DNA of 64,000 nt from Alphaproteobacteria bacterium (GTDB lineage Bacteria > Pseudomonadota > Alphaproteobacteria > VGEJ01), in the NCBI GenBank assembly GCA_965226045.1, contig CBDDBU010000021.1:1-64000 (forward strand). Direction: 5' to 3'. A program made the position numbers and the translations under genes. The notes beneath the pieces were generated by a model. That model did not search any database and was not told the DNA's origin. It worked only from the letters and a program-made list of their open reading frames with translations. This document shows positions 2,861 to 15,686 of this stretch, one piece after another (the stretch's first letter is position 1; each line of letters opens with the position of its first letter).

Positions 2861-4212
2861 GCCTCACTCGATAACGCTCGAACAGCTGCCAAGTCATCAC
2901 GCTGATACACCGCCCATGCTTTTTCGTGGCACGTGAAAAAGGTGATTGTGCCGGTATCGCCAATCTGAAGAATTGACCCCGCTTCAGATCGCCGTTGATT
3001 CCGGTTCCGTCCCGGCGCAGCATTTTGGCTCTGTGAACTATATTTGAGGGGGGCCCTGGATGAGATCGCACCATCGACCTCTTGAAGGGTGTAAGGATCG
3101 CTCACGGCAGACCGAACTCGCCGATCCTGACAAGACGGGACCAAGGTTCATGTTGGGATGGGTCCTGTAAGCCCAAGGTCAAGCGAGAAATTTTAGTACC
3201 GAACGCCATCGTCTCAAGAACTCCACGCACGTGGATCGAACGTATCGTCCCTGGTCCTCATGCGTGCCGATGTTCCAGCCGCGTGATCGTCTGCCCTCGC
3301 GGTCGATGCCGGCAATGAGTGGGCGTTCCCGCCAGTTCGTCATATGGCCTCTGTTGTAGCTCAGGGCCGTCTGTGATCGTTAGCATTTGAGCTATGAAGC
3401 TGCCGTGTCGATCAATGGACTCATGTAGCCGTTCTGCTCCGTCCAGGTTCCCCGCCCTGCCAATCCCGGATGGGTTGAGTTTGAACGATACCCGCCCGCA
3501 GATAGAGACATCGTCGATGGTATAGTGCGTACGTGGCAGCTGTAGACCCGCCTTGTCTTATGTCGCTCAATCCGTTCGCCTCTTGGTGCCATGTGAATGA
3601 GGACTTCGCCATCGATCTGTTTTTCCGACATGTTTCTCCGATCTGCAACTTCAACTCCTGGCAATCGTCGATCGCCTGGACATTGCACGCCACGACATAG
3701 CCTCGATGCTTCTCGCTCGCAGCCCTCGACGATGCCTCGATGGGAAGCTTGGGGTGGATAGGGCTGAGCCCGGTCCCCACGACTTGGCGGAAGGCCTTTG
3801 AGCAAAATTTCGACACCATCTTGGAGCGGGCCATGTGAGACTGATACCCCTCTCCTGCGCCAAACGGTGAAGTTTCCAGGCCTTGCCTCCGTCACATTTC
3901 CTCGGCCTAGGCGCCGCTGCCCCAGCCAGATAAGGACGTACAGCGGGAGCGTACAGATGTCATCATCGGAACAAGATTTTCGAGGGATGTCAGTCACGGG
4001 GTCTGCCGGAATCCTCCGGCATTTGGATCTGGAGGCAAGATTGCTGCAGCGTTCCGCTGTTACCCGCCAAGCGTTGAGAATCAGCAAACCACTCGCAGCC
4101 AATGGCGAGGCGTCCCATTCGAGTATTCATGTTGATCAATCTGTAGCGAGGACGGCTCGAGCTGGTGCCGAACCCGTTGCAATCCAAAGCAGACTTCCCT
4201 GTTGTGAGACCC

Positions 4213-5506
4213 TGTCCCTCCCATTTATTCCATCTATCGCAGAAACCTTGGAATTTTGCATCACCACCGGATACCCTTTCCGGCATGCATAAGATCATCG
4301 AAATCTTCGCGGACCGCGCGGCGCTCCACACAGAAATCCTTGCCCTGCGACAGCAGGTAGCTGTCCTGAAACGGAAAAGGCCCCGGCCATCGCTTCGGAA
4401 GGCAGATAGGGTTTTCTGGGTCATCCTGTCTTGCCTATGGCCTGGCTGGCGCCACGCCCTGGTAATCGTCAGGCCCGAGACCGTCATCGGTTGGCACCGC
4501 AAGGGGTTCAGGCTTTTCTGGACATGGAAGTCGCGGCGGAGAAAGCCGGGCCGACCACCGGTGTCGAGGGAGATCCGCCATCTGGTCCGACGGATGTCGC
4601 GGGAGAACACACGGTGGGGCGCACCTCGGATCCATGGCGAGCTTTTGAAGCTTGGCTTTTCCATCTCCCAGGCCGCCGTCTCGAAATACATGGTCCGTTA
4701 CCCATCGCCGCCATCGCAGTCGTGGCGGACATTCCTTACAAATCACGCCGATTGCCTGGCGTCGATCGATTTCTTCGTGGTCCCCACGGCCACGTTCCAC
4801 CTCCTGTTCGGGTTCATCGTGCTCCACCACGAGCGCCGCCAGATCGTGCATTTCGGTGTCACGGCGAACCCGACGATGGCGTGGGTCGCACAGCAGATCC
4901 GAGAGGCATTCCCGTGGGGCACGGCGCCGCGGTACCTGATCCGCGACCGGGACGGCGCATACGGGCAATCGTTCCGCTCGACCGTGACGGCGATGGGCGT
5001 GGAAGAGGTCGTTACGGCGCCACGGAGCCCGTGGCAAAATCCGTATGTGGAACGCCTGATCGGCAGCGTGAGGCGCGAATGCCTGGACCATTCGATCATC
5101 CTCAACGAGCGGCATTTGCGGCGCATTCTTGGCTCATACCTCGACTATTATCACGGTTCAAGGACCCACTTGTCGCTCGGCAAGGACACACCGGATGGAC
5201 GACCCGTTCAGCCGGCCGGGTCCGGAACGGTCGTTTCCTTGCCCAAGGTCGGCGGTCTGCATCATCGTTACGAACGCCTCGCGGCCTGACCACCCCCGCT
5301 CGGATTCGATCAATTCCTCTCTGTGGCAACGTGGACGCTGCCGGCATCCGCATGCCCTTGCATAGGTTCGCTGGCACGATCCGGCGGAATAAGCATCGTG
5401 ATGACCGCGCCCATGGTCGATTACAAAATCCACTGGCTCAAAATGATGTCCGTGCCGGAGAGCCGAGCCGTCGTTGGGAGGCACGATGGAATAAATGGAA
5501 GGGACA
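4213..5506 (+). mobile_element. IS481-family insertion sequence, copy 2
   Basis: Same inverted repeats and body as 889..2229 but without the 47-bp insertion. No target-site duplication evident. Confidence 0.8.
4285..5289 (+). CDS. IS481-family DDE transposase
   Basis: Start set at the internal Met (MHKIIEIFADRAAL), because the listed ORF start at 4165 lies outside the IS left end at 4213. rve-domain motifs as in copy 1. Confidence 0.75.
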   Translation: MHKIIEIFADRAALHTEILALRQQVAVLKRKRPRPSLRKADRVFWVILSCLWPGWRHALVIVRPETVIGWHRKGFRLFWTWKSRRRKPGRPPVSREIRHLVRRMSRENTRWGAPRIHGELLKLGFSISQAAVSKYMVRYPSPPSQSWRTFLTNHADCLASIDFFVVPTATFHLLFGFIVLHHERRQIVHFGVTANPTMAWVAQQIREAFPWGTAPRYLIRDRDGAYGQSFRSTVTAMGVEEVVTAPRSPWQNPYVERLIGSVRRECLDHSIILNERHLRRILGSYLDYYHGSRTHLSLGKDTPDGRPVQPAGSGTVVSLPKVGGLHHRYERLAA

Positions 5507-6776: not shown

Positions 6777-7866
6777 CGGCTTTGGTGCATGGAGCCGCGA
6801 TGGTGTGATCGCCCATTCCCCGGTTGGTTAGCGGATCCTGATTGTGTTTGGTTTCGCCGCACGGATAGAGCGATTGAGTGCGTCGATCTGCATGGCGATT
6901 TCGGTTTGTTGGGATTGGAATGTGCGAGCGTTGAGCTTGCCGCCGTTGAGCCTCTTGACGCGAGCCATGGCTGTTTCGCCAAGCGCTCTCAATCCGTAGC
7001 CCTGTCGTTTCTGCCAGTTCATCCTTCCCTTCGACGCGATCTCCGCCGCATGGTGCTCCCGTTCCGATCCGCCATGAGGCGTGTCCGGGAGAGGAATGGA
7101 TGTGGCGCGTGGCGGGATGATGATTTCAGGTGGTGAATTCGGTGGCCGAGCTTCTCGGATCGCTTTTGTCACGGGCTCCCCGTCATAGGCGCCGTCGGCA
7201 AACACGCGCCGGATCATCCCACCGGAACCGGCGACCAGCGGTCCCGCCATCGTCGCATCGGCCGTGTCGTCACCGGTCAGTTCATGCGCCCGTATCTCGC
7301 TGCTGGCCGGGTCAACCGAGATATGCAGCTTGCGCCACGAGCGCCGCGTTTCACCGTGCTTGGCGCGAGCCCACTCGCCAGCGCCAAAGAATTTCAGGCC
7401 CGTGGAATCCAGCACGATATCCGTAGACCGCTTGTTCGTGCTGGTTTCCACAACGACATCCACCGTTCGCCGCCGCCGCGACAGCGTGGTGTGATCCGGC
7501 ACCGGCAGATCACACCCCATCAAGTCCACGAGGGAACGCACAAAGCCTTCCGTCTGGCGCAGCGGCAGTCTGAAGACCACCCCCAGCATCAGTGTCGTGG
7601 AAATCGCCAACTCTGAAAACCGCCGCTGGCCACCAGGAGTTCGCCGCTTGGCTGCGTCCCATTGCTCCAGGGCGCTCTCATCAATCCAGAAACGAATGTC
7701 GCCGCGCCGAACCAAACCACGGTCATAATCCGGCCAGTTCATGACCCGGTACTTGGCTCTGGGGATATGGTGGCGACGCGATGCGTGGAACTTGAAAGGC
7801 ATGACAAACTCTCAAAGACGGAAGCGGAGCCAGATATACTAATCCTCAGGTCCATGCACCAAACTT
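6777..7866 (-). mobile_element. IS903-group (IS5 family) insertion sequence, copy 1
   Basis: About 1.09 kb. Terminal repeat GGCTTTGGTGCATGGAGCCGC resembles the IS903 GGCTTTGTTGAATAAATC end. Single DDE transposase ORF. Confidence 0.8.
6828..7802 (-). CDS. IS5-family (IS903 group) DDE transposase
   Basis: 324 aa. Motifs KLHISVDPASSEIRAHELTGDDTADA ... FADGAYDGEP ... IIPPRA are typical of IS903-group transposases. Confidence 0.8.
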   Translation of the reverse strand: MPFKFHASRRHHIPRAKYRVMNWPDYDRGLVRRGDIRFWIDESALEQWDAAKRRTPGGQRRFSELAISTTLMLGVVFRLPLRQTEGFVRSLVDLMGCDLPVPDHTTLSRRRRTVDVVVETSTNKRSTDIVLDSTGLKFFGAGEWARAKHGETRRSWRKLHISVDPASSEIRAHELTGDDTADATMAGPLVAGSGGMIRRVFADGAYDGEPVTKAIREARPPNSPPEIIIPPRATSIPLPDTPHGGSEREHHAAEIASKGRMNWQKRQGYGLRALGETAMARVKRLNGGKLNARTFQSQQTEIAMQIDALNRSIRAAKPNTIRIR

Positions 7867-10878: not shown

Positions 10879-11195
10879 ATCGTTTCGTCACCCTGCGGCG
10901 GACGATTGGATCGGCGGCGGTGTGAAACCGGTTCCTCGCCAATCTGTGGCCGCGTTGCAGTGGGCCTGCCTACAATCGGCGCTCGCCGGGGGTTTGGCGT
11001 GCGGGTTCGACGCCGAGCGGCATGCCACTCTACAGATGCGGTTCGATTATGAGGAGTCAAACTCCCGCGCCAGACCAAAACCCCGGGGTTGTTGGAGCCG
11101 ACTGATTCCGGCCATTGGAGCGCATTTCCAATAGACAGAATCTGAAAGGGGATTGAAGTAAACCGCTAGCCGGTGGCCGAGAAGGCCTTCGACTT

Positions 11196-12423
11196 GGCTT
11201 TGGTGCATGGAGCCGCGATGGTGTGATCGCCCATTCCCCGGTTGGTTAGCGGATCCTGATTGTGTTTGGTTTCGCCGCACGGATAGAGCGATTGAGTGCG
11301 TCGATCTGCATGGCGATTTCGGTTTGTTGGGATTGGAATGTGCGAGCGTTGAGCTTGCCGCCGTTGAGCCTCTTGACGCGAGCCATGGCTGTTTCGCCAA
11401 GCGCTCTCAATCCGTAGCCCTGTCGTTTCTGCCAGTTCATCCTTCCCTTCGACGCGATCTCCGCCGCATGGTGCTCCCGTTCCGATCCGCCATGAGGCGT
11501 GTCCGGGAGAGGAATGGATGTGGCGCGTGGCGGGATGATGATTTCAGGTGGTGAATTCGGTGGCCGAGCTTCTCGGATCGCTTTTGTCACGGGCTCCCCG
11601 TCATAGGCGCCGTCGGCAAACACGCGCCGGATCATCCCACCGGAACCGGCGACCAGCGGTCCCGCCATCGTCGCATCGGCCGTGTCGTCACCGGTCAGTT
11701 CATGCGCCCGTATCTCGCTGCTGGCCGGGTCAACCGAGATACGCAGCTTGCGCCACGAGCGCCGCGTTTCATCGCCTTCTGCCGGTCGTTCTTCCCCTGG
11801 TCCCGCCATCGTCGCATCGGCCGTGTCGTCACCGGTCAGTTCATGCGCCCATCTCGCTGCTGGCCGGGTCAACCGAGATATGCAGCTTGCGCCACGAGCG
11901 CCGCGTTTCACCGTGCTTGGCGCGAGCCCACTCGCCAGCGCCAAAGAATTTCAGGCCCGTGGAATCCAGCACGATATCCGTAGACCGCTTGTTCGTGCTG
12001 GTTTCCACAACGACATCCACCGTTCGCCGCCGCCGCGACAGCGTGGTGTGATCCGGCACCGGCAGATCACACCCCATCAAGTCCACGAGGGAACGCACAA
12101 AGCCTTCCGTCTGGCGCAGCGGCAGTCTGAAGACCACCCCCAGCATCAGTGTCGTGGAAATCGCCAACTCTGAAAACCGCCGCTGGCCACCAGGAGTTCG
12201 CCGCTTGGCTGCGTCCCATTGCTCCAGGGCGCTCTCATCAATCCAGAAACGAATGTCGCCGCGCCGAACCAAACCACGGTCATAATCCGGCCAGTTCATG
12301 ACCCGGTACTTGGCTCTGGGGATATGGTGGCGACGCGATGCGTGGAACTTGAAAGGCATGACAAACTCTCAAAGACGGAAGCGGAGCCAGATATACTAAT
12401 CCTCAGGTCCATGCACCAAAGCC
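11196..12423 (-). mobile_element. IS903-group (IS5 family) insertion sequence, copy 2, disrupted by a ~120-bp internal partial duplication
   Basis: Same ends as copy 1 (GGCTTTGGTGCATGG ... CCATGCACCAAAGCC). Body identical except for the duplicated segment around 11760..11880 and a point difference. Confidence 0.8.
11246..12359 (-). pseudogene. IS903-group transposase, split by internal duplication / frameshift
   Basis: ORFs 11246..11944 and 11841..12359 together cover the 324-aa transposase of copy 1, with the repeated segment HELTGDDTADATMAGP. Confidence 0.8.
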
Positions 12424-12547
12424 GTAGGACGGGGCTGCTGATGCCCGGGAGCGGGCCTCTGACGACGGTAGAAGGAAGCCCGTGGCACCCCCAGCGCTCG
12501 GCACGCCGGCGCCACGCCGACCTGCGATGCGAGCGGCTGGACGGCCA

Positions 12548-13165
12548 TCAGCAGTCCTTCCCGTGTTCGAGGCTGAATCCCAGCAGCCCGGCAACTTTTC
12601 CCTGGACGTCCAGGATCGTATGGGCGGTGTGCAGCTCCTTCTCCAGCCGAGCCACTTTCGCCTCGAGCTCGTGCACCTTCGCGCTGAGGGGGTTGCGCTC
12701 GGCGGGCTTCCGACCGCGTTTGCTCGGGGTCAGGCCTTGAAGCGACCCCTCACGCCGCGCCCTGCGCTGCCATTCCGTCAGATGGGAGCTGTACACCTCC
12801 GAGTGGCGCCGTCGTTGGTTATAGAAGATCTCGATGTACTCGAATAGCGCAGCCCTGGCCTCGCGCCGGGTAGAAAACCGGGTACGGTGCACGAGTTCGG
12901 TCTTGAGAGATCCAAAGAAGCTCTCCATAGGGGCGTTGTCGAGGCAATTCCCCTTGCGGCTCATGGAGGCCTTGATGCCATGGAGGCGGAGCAGTTTGCG
13001 GTAGTCACCGCAGGCATATTGCACACCGCGGTCGGAATGGTGGATCAGCCCCATGGGCAACCGGCGGCTGCGGATCGCCATCTTCAGCGCCTCCTCTCTT
13101 CAGCCGCCTCCTCCAGAATCCGCAGTCGATACTGCGCGGTGAACTTGCGCCTCTTCGGCGCCCGC
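12548..13165 (-). pseudogene. IS3-family transposase mosaic (OrfA N-terminus, OrfB C-terminal rve fragment, then a second OrfA-like leucine-zipper fragment)
   Basis: PKRRKFTAQYRLRILEEA (OrfA start) sits in one frame. MGLIHHSDRGVQY ... SMSRKGNCLDNAPMESFFGSLKTE ... FYNQRRRHS (OrfB C-terminus) follows. Then SKRGRKPAERNPLSAKVHELEAKVARLEKEL (OrfA-like zipper). Internally deleted and rearranged. Confidence 0.6.
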
Positions 13166-13334
13166 CGCCGGCTTGGCCACGACCTCCGGGTCCGGCGTTG
13201 GCCGCGCGTGGCTGGCTCCGGCCCCGGGGGCCTCGTCGCGACGCTCCTCGACCCCCAGGGCCGGAGCGTCCATCTCTTGCAATGTCATCGATTCTCTCTC
13301 TGCGGTCATTGGTATTCACCTCCACCGCCCTACA

Positions 13335-13371
13335 GTAATTCCAAGGGGGCCGGTAATTCCAAGGGGGGCCG
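13335..13371. repeat. 18/19-bp tandem direct repeat (GTAATTCCAAGGGGGCCG x2) at the IS3-remnant / AT-rich-islet junction
   Basis: Direct reading of sequence. Confidence 0.8.
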
Positions 13372-13435
13372 GTGTCTCAGTGAGGTTGGCAGAGAGGGGC
13401 ACACTCATTTCTAGTCAACTGGCAGAGCTATTTAG

Positions 13436-14206
13436 ATGCTCGTCACAAGGGGCATGAGGCGTTCGCTAAAGCCCCAGACGCTAGTCATTGTAGCGAAACA
13501 TTTCGACAAGCTTTACGAAGACCTCTGGCAGGATGATGTATTTCATTACACGGGGATGGGCCGAAAGGGGAATCAACGGCTAGATCGTACTCAAAATAGA
13601 ACATTACGTGACCACGAAACACTTGGTGTGTCAGTCCATGTGTGTCAGTCCATTTTTTGAGCAATTTGTACCGGCCAAATATCACTATCAAGGAGAGGTG
13701 TACCTATCTGACAACCCGTATCAGGAGCACCAACCTGATGTCGAAGGAAATGACCGTTTAGTCTGGGTTTCCCCATTGAAGCTAAAAGTTGGTGACCCCG
13801 TACCTGAACCTCTGAATCAATATCGTGCTCGATTTGAGAAAAAGGAGAAAAGATCCGCTCAACTATCTCCAGCAAAGCTCAAGAAGAAGGCTCAACTGGC
13901 TAAGGGGTCAGCTGGGCGTAAACGTGTTTCGACCCTCCAGCACAAGAGAGATGAAAACGTTGCAGCCTATGCCAAGAATAGAGCTGCGGGATTTTGCGAT
14001 CTTTGCGAGAAACTGGCACCGTTTCTAAAAAAACGGACGGTAAACCCTACTTAGAGGTCCATCATATAATGTGGTTGGCTAGGGGCGGTGAAGATACGAT
14101 TTCCAATACCGTTTCCCTATGCCCGAACTGCCACCGCAAGATGCATTCATTGAACCTGCAGCACGATGTTTCTCGATTAACCGAAAAAGCTAGATCGTAT
14201 AAGTGA
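13436..14206 (+). pseudogene. SRA(YDG)-HNH type IV (modification-dependent) restriction endonuclease, 5'-truncated and frameshifted
   Basis: Frame 1 FHYTGMGRKGNQRLDRTQNRTL resembles the UHRF1 SRA segment FTYTGSGGRD ... NRAL. Frame 2 YHYQGEVY ... LVWVS resembles the SRA YDG motif region. C-terminal HNH motif CDLCEKLAPF ... EVHHIMWLARGG ... NTVSLCPNCHRKMH is split by a +1 shift at an A7 run (14027..14033). A 14-bp perfect tandem duplication lies at 13626..13653. Sits in an AT-rich (~45% GC) islet. Confidence 0.65.
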
Positions 14207-14242
14207 AATTCTTACATTCGGTGAGCAGTATGGAATCTGGAA

Positions 14243-14439
14243 TTATCTATAAGGCTTATCCCTCTGCATCCGGTAACGCAATATGAGGGGGCTACGCAGT
14301 TGTCGGTTGTCGAGCGGGTAGTTGGTCGCGAAAGCGCACTTTGCCTGGGCCTTAGCCGGGTCGCGCCGCTGCGCGCGTAGCATCGAGGCCACCACCCGTT
14401 GATCCTACCGGGGCCAGAGGGATAAGCCTTTTATCTATA
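14243..14439. repeat. Inverted repeat pair (core AAGGCTTATCCCTCTG / CAGAGGGATAAGCCTT) separated by ~150 bp; MITE-like or structured-RNA-like
   Basis: 16-bp perfect inverted repeat at 14251..14266 and 14415..14430, with partial extension. The GC-rich spacer contains the palindrome GCGCGCCGCTGCGCGCG. Confidence 0.5.
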
Positions 14440-14590
14440 TCCTGATCAACGAAGAGATGCCCGGATACGTCAAGATTGGGAAGACTGAAGGCCCTCTCGA
14501 GAGACGGATGAGGGGCTTGATACAACGGGCGTGCCTCTTCCGTTTGACTGCTTTTAAGCCCTCAAGGTTGGCGATGTAGATTTCGTCGGA
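14421..14590 (+). pseudogene. T5orf172 / GIY-YIG-like domain remnant
   Basis: FIYILINEEMPGYVKIGKTEGPLERR matches the T5orf172 consensus (YVL.N...KIG.T). Continuation DTTGVPLPFD is in another frame. No start codon; decays after ~50 codons. Confidence 0.4.
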
Positions 14591-14816
14591 AAACAGCTCC
14601 CACCAGACCAATGAGGTCAGTCGGAACCCTCATCCGAAAGTGATATCGCTTCTGCCTCTATCTGTACATACATGCCATCGCCGTGTAGCAATTTGTGTAG
14701 CAAACACGGCTCACGACACGGTGGATCACGCTTAAGTGATTGTTTGGCCTATGTTTTCACAAAGAATGGCGGAGTTAGAGAGGGAACAGATGGTCTGACC
14801 GACGCATGCAGCCGGT

Positions 14817-15686
14817 CTACCTGCCGATATCGACCAGGTCGCCGTAGGTCTCGGGGCGACGGTCGCGGTAGAACTGCCATAGGTCGCGGACCTCGCGCAC
14901 CTGGTCGAGGTCGATGTCGGATACCACCAGCTCGTCGTCGGTCTCGCTCGCCTGGGCGATGATCTGGCCGCGCGGGTCGACCACGTAGGACGAGCCGTAG
15001 AAGCGCCCGACGTTCCATGGCGCCTCCTCGCCGACCCGGTTGATGGCGCCGATGAAGACGCCGTTGGCCACCGCTGCCGCCGGCTGCTCCAACTCCCACA
15101 GGTATTGGCTCAAACCCGCCACGGTGGCCGAGGGGTTGACAATGTACTCGGCGCCGCGGAGCGCGAGCGCCCGCCATCCTTCGGGAAAGTGGCGGTCGTA
15201 GCAGATGTAGACGCCGAGCTTGCAATAGGCGGTCTCGAACACCGGCCAGCCGCTCGCGCCAGGCTTGAAGAAGAACTTCTCGTAGAAGCCGGAGACCTGG
15301 GGGATGTGGGTCTTGCGATACTTGCCGAGGTAGCTGCCATCAGCGTCGATCACGGCTGCGGTGTTGTAGTAGACCCCGGTCATCTCCTCCTCGTAGACCG
15401 GCGCCACGATCACCATGTCGTGGCGCTTGGCGAGTTCGCGCATGTGGCTCACGGTCGGCCCGTCGGGCACCTTCTCGGCGGCGGCGTACCACTTCCGGTC
15501 CTGGCTCGGCGGGAAATAGGGCTGGGTGAAGACCTCTTGGAGGGAGAGTATGCGTACCCCCTGGGCTGCCGCCTTGGCGATGAAGGGCTCGTGCGCGGCG
15601 ATCATCCGGTCGCCGATAGCCTGCGGGCTGTCGCCGGTGTCGCCCTTAAGCGACATCTGAATCAGGCCGACCTTGACGATGCTCAT
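14817..15686 (-). CDS. Beta-ureidopropionase / N-carbamoyl-amino-acid amidohydrolase (CN-hydrolase family)
   Basis: 289 aa. Nitrilase-superfamily catalytic context (E, K, C in GVYICYDRHFPE). Genomic context with preTA and dihydropyrimidinase. Confidence 0.75.
   Translation of the reverse strand: MSIVKVGLIQMSLKGDTGDSPQAIGDRMIAAHEPFIAKAAAQGVRILSLQEVFTQPYFPPSQDRKWYAAAEKVPDGPTVSHMRELAKRHDMVIVAPVYEEEMTGVYYNTAAVIDADGSYLGKYRKTHIPQVSGFYEKFFFKPGASGWPVFETAYCKLGVYICYDRHFPEGWRALALRGAEYIVNPSATVAGLSQYLWELEQPAAAVANGVFIGAINRVGEEAPWNVGRFYGSSYVVDPRGQIIAQASETDDELVVSDIDLDQVREVRDLWQFYRDRRPETYGDLVDIGR

Follow-up and report, generated by a model that had tools for sequence, protein, structure and literature searches.

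The 64,000-nt stretch analysed here (the window; positions 1 to 64,000 of contig CBDDBU010000021.1, assembly GCA_965226045.1) belongs to an uncultured alphaproteobacterium, the LepA of which is 76-77% identical to LepA of Ferrovibrio, Stellaceae and Hypericibacter. Positions 13400-14780 form an islet of low guanine-plus-cytosine (GC) content that holds the remains of two genes, one for an SRA-HNH protein related to type IV restriction endonucleases and one for a T5orf172/MUG113 protein. A sequence-only reading of the region had described a decaying or possibly phase-variable SRA-HNH gene at 13436-14206 in a low-GC islet. The islet was compared with a donor-like metagenomic contig, L001, which carries the two genes in the same order, and with three long contigs from sister strains.

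An SRA-HNH gene in a low-GC islet

In 300-nt windows the GC content is 0.45-0.48 across ~13450-14350 and 0.62-0.72 in the flanks, in agreement with the earlier description. Excluding a GC-rich insertion described below, the islet has 47.1% GC, compared with 64.0% for the whole window. Because of this contrast, and because donor-like contig L001 has 48.6% GC, the SRA-HNH gene probably arrived by horizontal transfer. Three plus-strand open reading frame (ORF) fragments cover it (13436-13660, 13608-14054 and 13994-14206), and the peptides quoted in the earlier reading are present. Homology to L001 starts further upstream, at 13400, where the first homologous codons are GTLISSQLAELFRCSSQG in frame 0. 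Window 13400-14251 is 88.2% identical to L001 6027-6864 at the nucleotide level. With the frameshifts repaired, the translation is 264 aa long, has no internal stops and aligns residue for residue with P0001, the 272-aa product of the L001 gene. P0001 is encoded on three metagenomic contigs (L001-L003).

Used as a query, the repaired ORF found a family of 935 homologs, with which it aligns end to end. P0001 ranked first, with 88% identity across 98% of the query. Each of the best 120 of the 935 carries the precomputed domains PF26348 and PF01844. PF26348 is named SRA_ScoMcrA in the annotation of P0001, and this SRA assignment was scored on the 88% identical P0001 rather than on the broken window copy. 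Pfam searches of the fragments and the repaired ORF matched HNH models only, with E = 9e-12 against HNH (PF01844) for ORF 13994-14206. In NCBIfam only HNH-containing families appeared, all below threshold (IscB, HlpB and PT-DNA_restrict, the last with 16.5 against a 180-bit cut-off). PADLOC labels P0001 mREase_IV (E = 6e-20).

Conserved residues were examined in a family alignment (A2) of 43 sequences, P0001 and 42 other intact homologs, from which a profile was also built. The repaired translation keeps all of the HNH motifs, matching the invariant family columns C204, C207, H225, H226, N240, C245, C248 and H249. Family-invariant SRA residues are likewise kept (H58-Y59-T60-G61-x-G63, N75, E92, Y99, G103, Q116 and D118). 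R51 (98% conserved) is replaced by L and F129 (100% conserved) by S.

Structural comparisons, which do not depend on Pfam, point the same way. Searches of PDB sequences matched the HNH half to EcoKMcrA (6ghc; 9e-19 with the single sequence in phmmer, 2e-27 with the profile in hmmsearch) and to ScoMcrA (5zmm; 5e-7 and 2e-9, respectively), and the profile matched TagI with E = 8e-4 via the HNH part only. An AlphaFold model of P0001 (predicted local distance difference test 91.8, predicted template-modelling score 0.82) consists of an SRA domain at ~10-135, a helical linker and a C-terminal HNH domain, with no sulfur-binding domain N-terminal to the SRA domain. Foldseek matched this model in the PDB to ScoMcrA (3.5e-13), TagI (6e-9) and EcoKMcrA (1.5e-7), followed by the 5-methylcytosine (5mC)-binding SRA domains of SUVH5 (template-modelling score 0.67 on the target), KRYPTONITE, UHRF1 and UHRF2. 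As modelled, the SRA domain appears most like those of ScoMcrA and SUVH5, and the HNH domain most like that of EcoKMcrA. These results support the assignment of the family to the SRA-HNH type IV (modification-dependent) restriction endonucleases. The TagI/ScoMcrA-like enzyme that had been proposed from the window alone is borne out by the domain pair on the homologs, the HNH match and the predicted structure.

The family occurs in Firmicutes, Proteobacteria and archaea. Intact relatives 41-54% identical to P0001 were also found on 22 viral or proviral contigs of IMG/VR (L087-L108). Such taxonomic and viral spread is typical of a mobile defence gene. The gene is solitary, as no methyltransferase domain was found among the called genes of L001. 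A motif scan of window ORFs of at least 150 aa found no motif IV (PCQ) of C5-methyltransferases.

Lesions in the window copy

Lesions were read from base-level DNA alignments to L001 and the sister strains, with ancestral states taken from the 88% identical homolog and the family length. The reading frame is broken by four frameshifts, and its 5' end is missing (Table 1). Because homology starts at 13400 and the single-base deletion in the G-run, which had gone unnoticed, shifts the frame, the ATG at 13436 is an out-of-frame artefact and not a start codon.

The perfect 14-bp tandem duplication lies exactly where the sequence-only reading had placed it, as two copies of GTGTGTCAGTCCAT (TRF). 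By our estimate the chance expectation of such a 14-bp repeat in the window is ~64000 x 4^-14 = ~2e-4. The frame does change at this site as that reading held, but the duplication alone is insufficient; frame arithmetic and the 13-column alignment gap rule it out as sole cause. A single-base deletion in the adjoining T-run is also needed. Together the two lesions add 13 nt and return the frame from 2 to 0, as checked by the repaired translation.

The A7 run at 14027-14033 was also correctly located, and this site shifts the frame. The lesion, though, is a gain of 2 nt adjoining a (ACGG) repeat that is present once or twice according to strain (window AAAAAAACGGACGG, L001 AAAAAAGGGCGG). Repair by extending A7 to A8 was rejected, as it gives KKTDGKP, one residue longer than in every homolog; removal of 'AC' gives KKDGKP, as in P0003.

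Clearly, four frameshifts and the 5' loss leave no single uninterrupted polypeptide with a start codon. A product with both domains cannot be made, and the present locus encodes nothing functional. Positions 13400-14206 are almost certainly a non-functional relic of a horizontally acquired, single-gene type IV restriction system.

Table 1. Features of the islet and its borders (L001, donor-like contig; L084 and L085, sister-strain contigs; IS, insertion sequence; MITE, miniature inverted-repeat transposable element)
Feature	Position	Strand	Details
Fragmentary IS3-family element	12423..13399	-	rve/rve_2/rve_3 matches on ORF 12548-13081; outer end truncates the pseudogene
5' truncation	13399/13400	+	ATG, first 26 nt of coding sequence (~9 codons) and everything upstream absent; no start codon
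SRA-HNH type IV restriction endonuclease pseudogene	13400..14206	+	codons ~9-272 of the intact gene; stop TGA 14204-14206
SRA (reader of 5mC or 5-hydroxymethylcytosine) coding region	13400..13790	+	contains HYTGMG...NQ...N..L motif
Lesion 1, G-run	13449..13452	+	G4 vs ancestral G5 (-1); frame 0 to 2; common to L084 and L085
Lesion 2, 14-bp perfect tandem duplication	13626..13653	+	+14; TRF; absent in L001, present in L084 and L085
Lesion 3, T-run	13653..13658	+	T6 vs CATCTTTTC in L001, CAT TTTTT vs CAT CTTTTC (-1); 13-column alignment gap
HNH (beta-beta-alpha-Me) nuclease coding region	13941..14155	+	both CxxC pairs, CDLC...EVHHI...N...CPNCHRKMH
Lesion 4, A-run	14027..14040	+	A7 then (ACGG)2; +2 vs L001 and family length; frame 0 to 2
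T5orf172/MUG113 gene remnant	14230..14608	+	~first 64 of 204 codons; 91% nucleotide identity to L001 6856-7033; alignment A4
179-bp MITE-like insertion	14252..14430		62.6% GC; terminal inverted repeats perfect over 15 bp; interrupts T5orf172 codon 8
~180-nt repeat of the donor-type island	14596..14774	+	right end of the islet; 93% identity to L001 2074-2250
Intact host CN_hydrolase gene	14817..15686	-	right boundary of the islet; anchor for finding sister strains

Decay in sister strains

The sister-strain contigs (L084, L085 and L086) come from other samples and were recovered with the CN_hydrolase gene as anchor. In L084 and L085 the islet is ~99.4% identical to that of the window, and the G-run deletion, the 14-bp duplication and the T-run deletion are common to all three. 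The recurrence of these lesions in independent assemblies confirms the pseudogenisation that had been suggested from the window alone. The A-run site varies: the window and L084 have (ACGG)2 (+2) and L085 has (ACGG)1 (-2), both out of frame relative to the family length. L084 has an additional 10-bp indel near codon 20, and L085 has a 1.2-kb insertion just 3' of the pseudogene stop codon. The inserted segment (L085 9456-10656, equivalent to window ~14220-14231) lies in the spacer before the T5orf172 start and contains a 227-aa ORF without a Pfam match. In L086 the gene has been lost; only the equivalent of window 14661-14816 is left, adjoining an IS256-type transposase.

The gene had been described as 5'-truncated by IS3 remnants. 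This holds for the window strain, where the IS ends exactly at 13399 and only ~9 codons of coding sequence are gone, but not for L084 and L085, which retain the ATG and ~100 bp upstream. The IS3 truncation therefore came later, and in the window strain only. Both termini of the full-length IS copies in L084 match the outer end of the element (13353-13399) with 100% identity, and 12423-12795 and 13106-13354 likewise match the L084 IS. An 18-bp tandem duplication in the terminal region (13335-13373, GTAATTCCAAGGGGGGCCG twice; TRF) is absent from the full-length copies. ORF 12548-13081 (minus strand) is chimeric, joining the rve C-terminus of one IS3-type transposase (~13081-12830) directly to the C-terminal leucine zipper of an IS3 OrfA (~12795-12548), and two different IS3-family fragments have therefore been juxtaposed.

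Comparison of the repaired window gene with L001 by the Nei-Gojobori method gave a ratio of nonsynonymous to synonymous divergence (dN/dS) of 0.16 (dS 0.32, dN 0.053). Because dN/dS is this low at a dS of 0.32, most of the divergence accrued under purifying selection. The 31 amino-acid differences were polarised against the 42 other family members, and highly conserved positions were found to have changed on the window branch only. They include A243S (98% conserved) in addition to R51L and F129S, and also T34P, E164K and E187K. P0001 has no unique deviation at highly conserved columns. The replacements on the window branch fit relaxed constraint after a comparatively recent inactivation.

These data give a stepwise history. 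The SRA-HNH gene would have entered the 64% GC alphaproteobacterium together with the T5orf172 gene, on an island of ~48% GC. The common ancestor of the window, L084 and L085 strains then gained the G-run deletion, the 14-bp duplication and the T-run deletion, and a frameshift arose at the A-run/(ACGG) site, which has since varied between strains. Decay continued independently, with removal of the start codon and upstream region by the IS3-family element in the window strain, the 10-bp indel in L084, the 1.2-kb insertion in L085 and loss of the gene in L086. Apart from the arrival by transfer, the strain comparison establishes the order of these events.

Alternative explanations

Several points weigh against the reading of the locus as a relic of a 5mC-dependent enzyme. 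The ancestral state at each lesion was taken from one 88% identical homolog and the family length. It may be that one sequencing technology was used for the three sister assemblies, and a systematic homopolymer error is formally possible for the two single-base lesions. The SRA call reaches the window copy indirectly, through the precomputed Pfam match and the predicted structure of its 88% identical homolog. PF02182 (SAD_SRA/SRA-YDG) had no match in Pfam searches of the fragments, the repaired ORF or the intact homologs; the earlier reading had looked to a match of both this model and HNH on the repaired translation, and only the HNH part was found. The N-terminal domain had no significant PDB sequence or profile match, and its YTGxG..GDQ segment aligns to the SRA domains of ScoMcrA and TagI non-significantly. 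Finally, the modification read, whether 5mC, 5-hydroxymethylcytosine (5hmC) or another, is carried over from solved relatives that are only ~12-26% identical in the SRA domain.

If the gene were intact in the organism, the frameshifts would be sequencing or assembly errors at the homopolymers G4, T6 and A7. Short homopolymer runs are indeed touched by 3/4 frameshifts, a classic signature of long-read indel error. On the other hand, the perfect duplication, the IS junction that removes the ATG and the +2 'AC' change are not homopolymer errors, and the G-run, duplication and T-run lesions recur in two other assemblies from different samples. A shared technology has no force as an objection to the duplication, the IS junction or the stop codon in the neighbouring gene. 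That T5orf172 gene is itself damaged by a MITE insertion, an in-frame TAA and truncation, other long ORFs of the window run without interruption (805, 766 and 740 aa, for example), and the window copy has its own replacements at invariant residues. An intact gene is extremely improbable. Nor is there much to be said for a defence gene under phase variation (a contingency locus), its expression toggled by slippage within the A7 tract, as the sequence-only reading had suggested, or within the adjacent (ACGG)n. The site is polymorphic between strains, and sequence arithmetic indicates that A7 to A8 would mend the local frame. Yet both alleles seen are out of frame, three more frameshifts upstream are fixed throughout the window, L084 and L085 strains, neither start codon nor promoter is left in the window copy, and none of the 43 intact genes in alignment A2 has such a repeat structure at the site. 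Slippage at a single tract could not restore expression past five independent lesions, and phase variation is rejected as scarcely credible.

A different question is what the ancestor recognised. The locus could be a pseudogene of an enzyme that did not read 5mC, its SRA-like PUA-superfamily domain having recognised another modification (5hmC only, glucosylated bases, N6-methyladenine or a phosphorothioate context), as the domains of other PUA/EVE/SBD-HNH enzymes do (SBD, sulfur-binding domain). The missing PF02182 match favours this view, the specificities of PUA-HNH enzymes vary (PMC6765204), and the best structural match, ScoMcrA, prefers phosphorothioate and 5hmC (PMC7461809). Against it, the architecture is SRA and HNH only, without a sulfur-binding domain; every SRA-HNH enzyme characterised acts on DNA with 5mC and/or 5hmC (PMC6212794, PMC4333417, PMC6765204); and the 5mC-binding SRA domains of SUVH5 and UHRF1 are strong structural matches. 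A specificity of this other kind is improbable. As to the missing Pfam match, the classical SRA-YDG model misses this bacterial SRA clade, for which PF26348 or structure-based detection is needed.

Neighbouring genes and repeats

In L001 a 204-aa T5orf172/MUG113 gene (PF10544/PF13455 matches) starts 23 nt after the SRA-HNH gene, and its product aligns along its whole length with PDC-S57, a candidate defence system of PADLOC (4.8e-68). Only the 5' end survives in the window, where this copy has been destroyed. It is split by the MITE-like insertion, has a single-base deletion at the G-run at 14512-14515, a TAT to TAA stop at 14555-14557 and a single-base gain near 14597, and is truncated at ~14608, where it joins the ~180-nt repeat at the microhomology CCACCAGAC. 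PDC-S57 is not part of the SRA-HNH system. A conserved module of the two genes was ruled out, as 0/80 genomic loci of SRA-HNH homologs have a T5orf172 relative within 10 kb. Because the pairing is not conserved, the SRA-HNH protein is considered to act as a stand-alone enzyme, as described for type IV enzymes. Other neighbours of the SRA-HNH gene at L001 4027-8919 encode a 425-aa T5orf172 protein, a 146-aa repeat protein with a faint MORN_2 match and a 481-aa protein without a Pfam or PADLOC match. It is possible that this region of L001 is a defence island, some of whose components are uncharacterised.

The MITE-like insertion is bounded by the terminal inverted repeats AGGCTTATCCCTCTG and CAGAGGGATAAGCCT and by a 9-bp target-site duplication, TTATCTATA, at 14243-14251 and 14431-14439; the empty site is seen in L001. 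Two more copies in L086 (10914-11111 and 11293-11472) flank a tRNA-Ser(GGA) gene beside an IS630-type (DDE_3) transposase. The ~180-nt repeat has copies at window 14596-14790, at L001 809-868, 2046-2250 and 3418-3554 (all three intergenic) and at L086 8905-9015. It contains GTGTAGCAA twice, and its end, TGGCGGAG..AGAGG, resembles the complement of the 3' end of tRNA-Ser. Possible identities of the repeat are a promoter/operator block that is shared, the end of an island or what is left of an attachment site (att), and a MITE from the donor lineage. Folding of the repeat and of the MITE was unremarkable (z = -1.9 and -2.2, respectively). As for a tRNA or att site bordering the islet, ARAGORN found no tRNA in the window, where there is only a 13-19-nt resemblance to the tRNA-Ser 3' end, and an Rfam scan of 11000-15000 gave no matches.

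Upstream of the islet lies an IS graveyard with IS3-, IS5-, IS481-like and IS1595-like fragments, and the window is rich in IS sequences over its first ~13.4 kb. Two copies of an IS5-type element (DDE_Tnp_1_5; 11196-12420 and 6778-7863) are 99.7% identical, and the copy at 11.2-12.4 kb carries an internal 117-bp duplication (11658-11774/11799-11913). Two paralogous rve_3/HTH_32 transposase ORFs are located at 990-2012 and 4165-5289.

Relationship to characterised enzymes

The intact ancestor would have been a protein of ~272 aa whose N-terminal SRA domain would flip a modified cytosine (5mC/5hmC) of invading DNA into its pocket. The zinc-stabilised C-terminal HNH domain would nick or cut nearby, probably as a dimer like TagI. 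By analogy with characterised relatives, such an enzyme would have restricted incoming DNA bearing modified cytosines. In the TagI dimer, flipped 5mC or 5hmC is accommodated in the SRA pockets, and the HNH domains make a nick or cut close by (PMC6212794). Binding of 5mC by Sco5333 and Tbis1 is independent of sequence context, with a preference of at least 100-fold, and neither enzyme can be established in dcm+ hosts (PMC4333417). A further seven SRA-HNH enzymes cut 5mC or 5hmC DNA (PMC6765204).

TagI, ScoA3IV (Sco5333) and TbiR51I have the same order of domains as the window family, an N-terminal SRA and a C-terminal zinc-finger HNH (PDB 6ghs; PMC6212794, PMC4333417). TagI, at 311 aa, is slightly longer. 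Sco5333 lies in a tRNA-flanked genomic island (PMC4333417), and the window family likewise consists of solitary genes on mobile islands. Identity to these enzymes is only ~20-23%, however, and the window copy, unlike them, is a pseudogene. ScoMcrA (SBD-SRA-HNH; PDB 5zmm/5zmn) gives its name to the Pfam family under which the N-terminal domain is filed, and the HNH domains are homologous. At 561 aa ScoMcrA has extra N-terminal head and sulfur-binding domains, which confer phosphorothioate dependence and are absent in the window family, and identity is 11-19%. EcoKMcrA (E. coli McrA; PDB 6ghc; PMC6182155) is similar in size (287 aa), and family members carry the database label '5-methylcytosine-specific restriction enzyme A'. 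The match is limited to the C-terminal HNH half (query 160-262). According to the literature the N-terminal 5mC reader of EcoKMcrA is not an SRA domain, whereas the N-terminal domain of the window family is predicted to have the canonical SRA fold.

Within the known SRA-HNH type IV family, the decayed locus falls in a ~272-aa clade already covered by the Pfam pair PF26348 and PF01844. This clade is apparently uncharacterised; we know of no member that has been studied.

Implications

We wondered whether inactivation was selected rather than neutral, in that a newly acquired 5mC-dependent nuclease would have attacked the recipient's own methylated DNA, as Sco5333 and ScoA3IV do in Dcm+ E. coli, and been knocked out rapidly. 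This is unlikely. If it were true, the window, L084, L085 and L086 would represent successive decay stages of an islet with two defence genes, the common frameshifts having been followed by IS, MITE, indel and deletion events particular to each strain. They would then form a natural time series showing what becomes of incompatible defence genes once they have been transferred horizontally.

As a pseudogene from a known enzyme family, the locus is genuine but ordinary, and it matters little except for annotation. Three hypothetical ORFs or an 'HNH endonuclease' gene would not be an appropriate annotation. It should be entered as an SRA-HNH (McrA-like) type IV pseudogene and a T5orf172/PDC-S57 pseudogene in an islet ridden with IS and MITE sequences. 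Its decay events can be placed in order through the sister strains, and it is a clean and well-resolved example of the turnover of defence genes after horizontal transfer.

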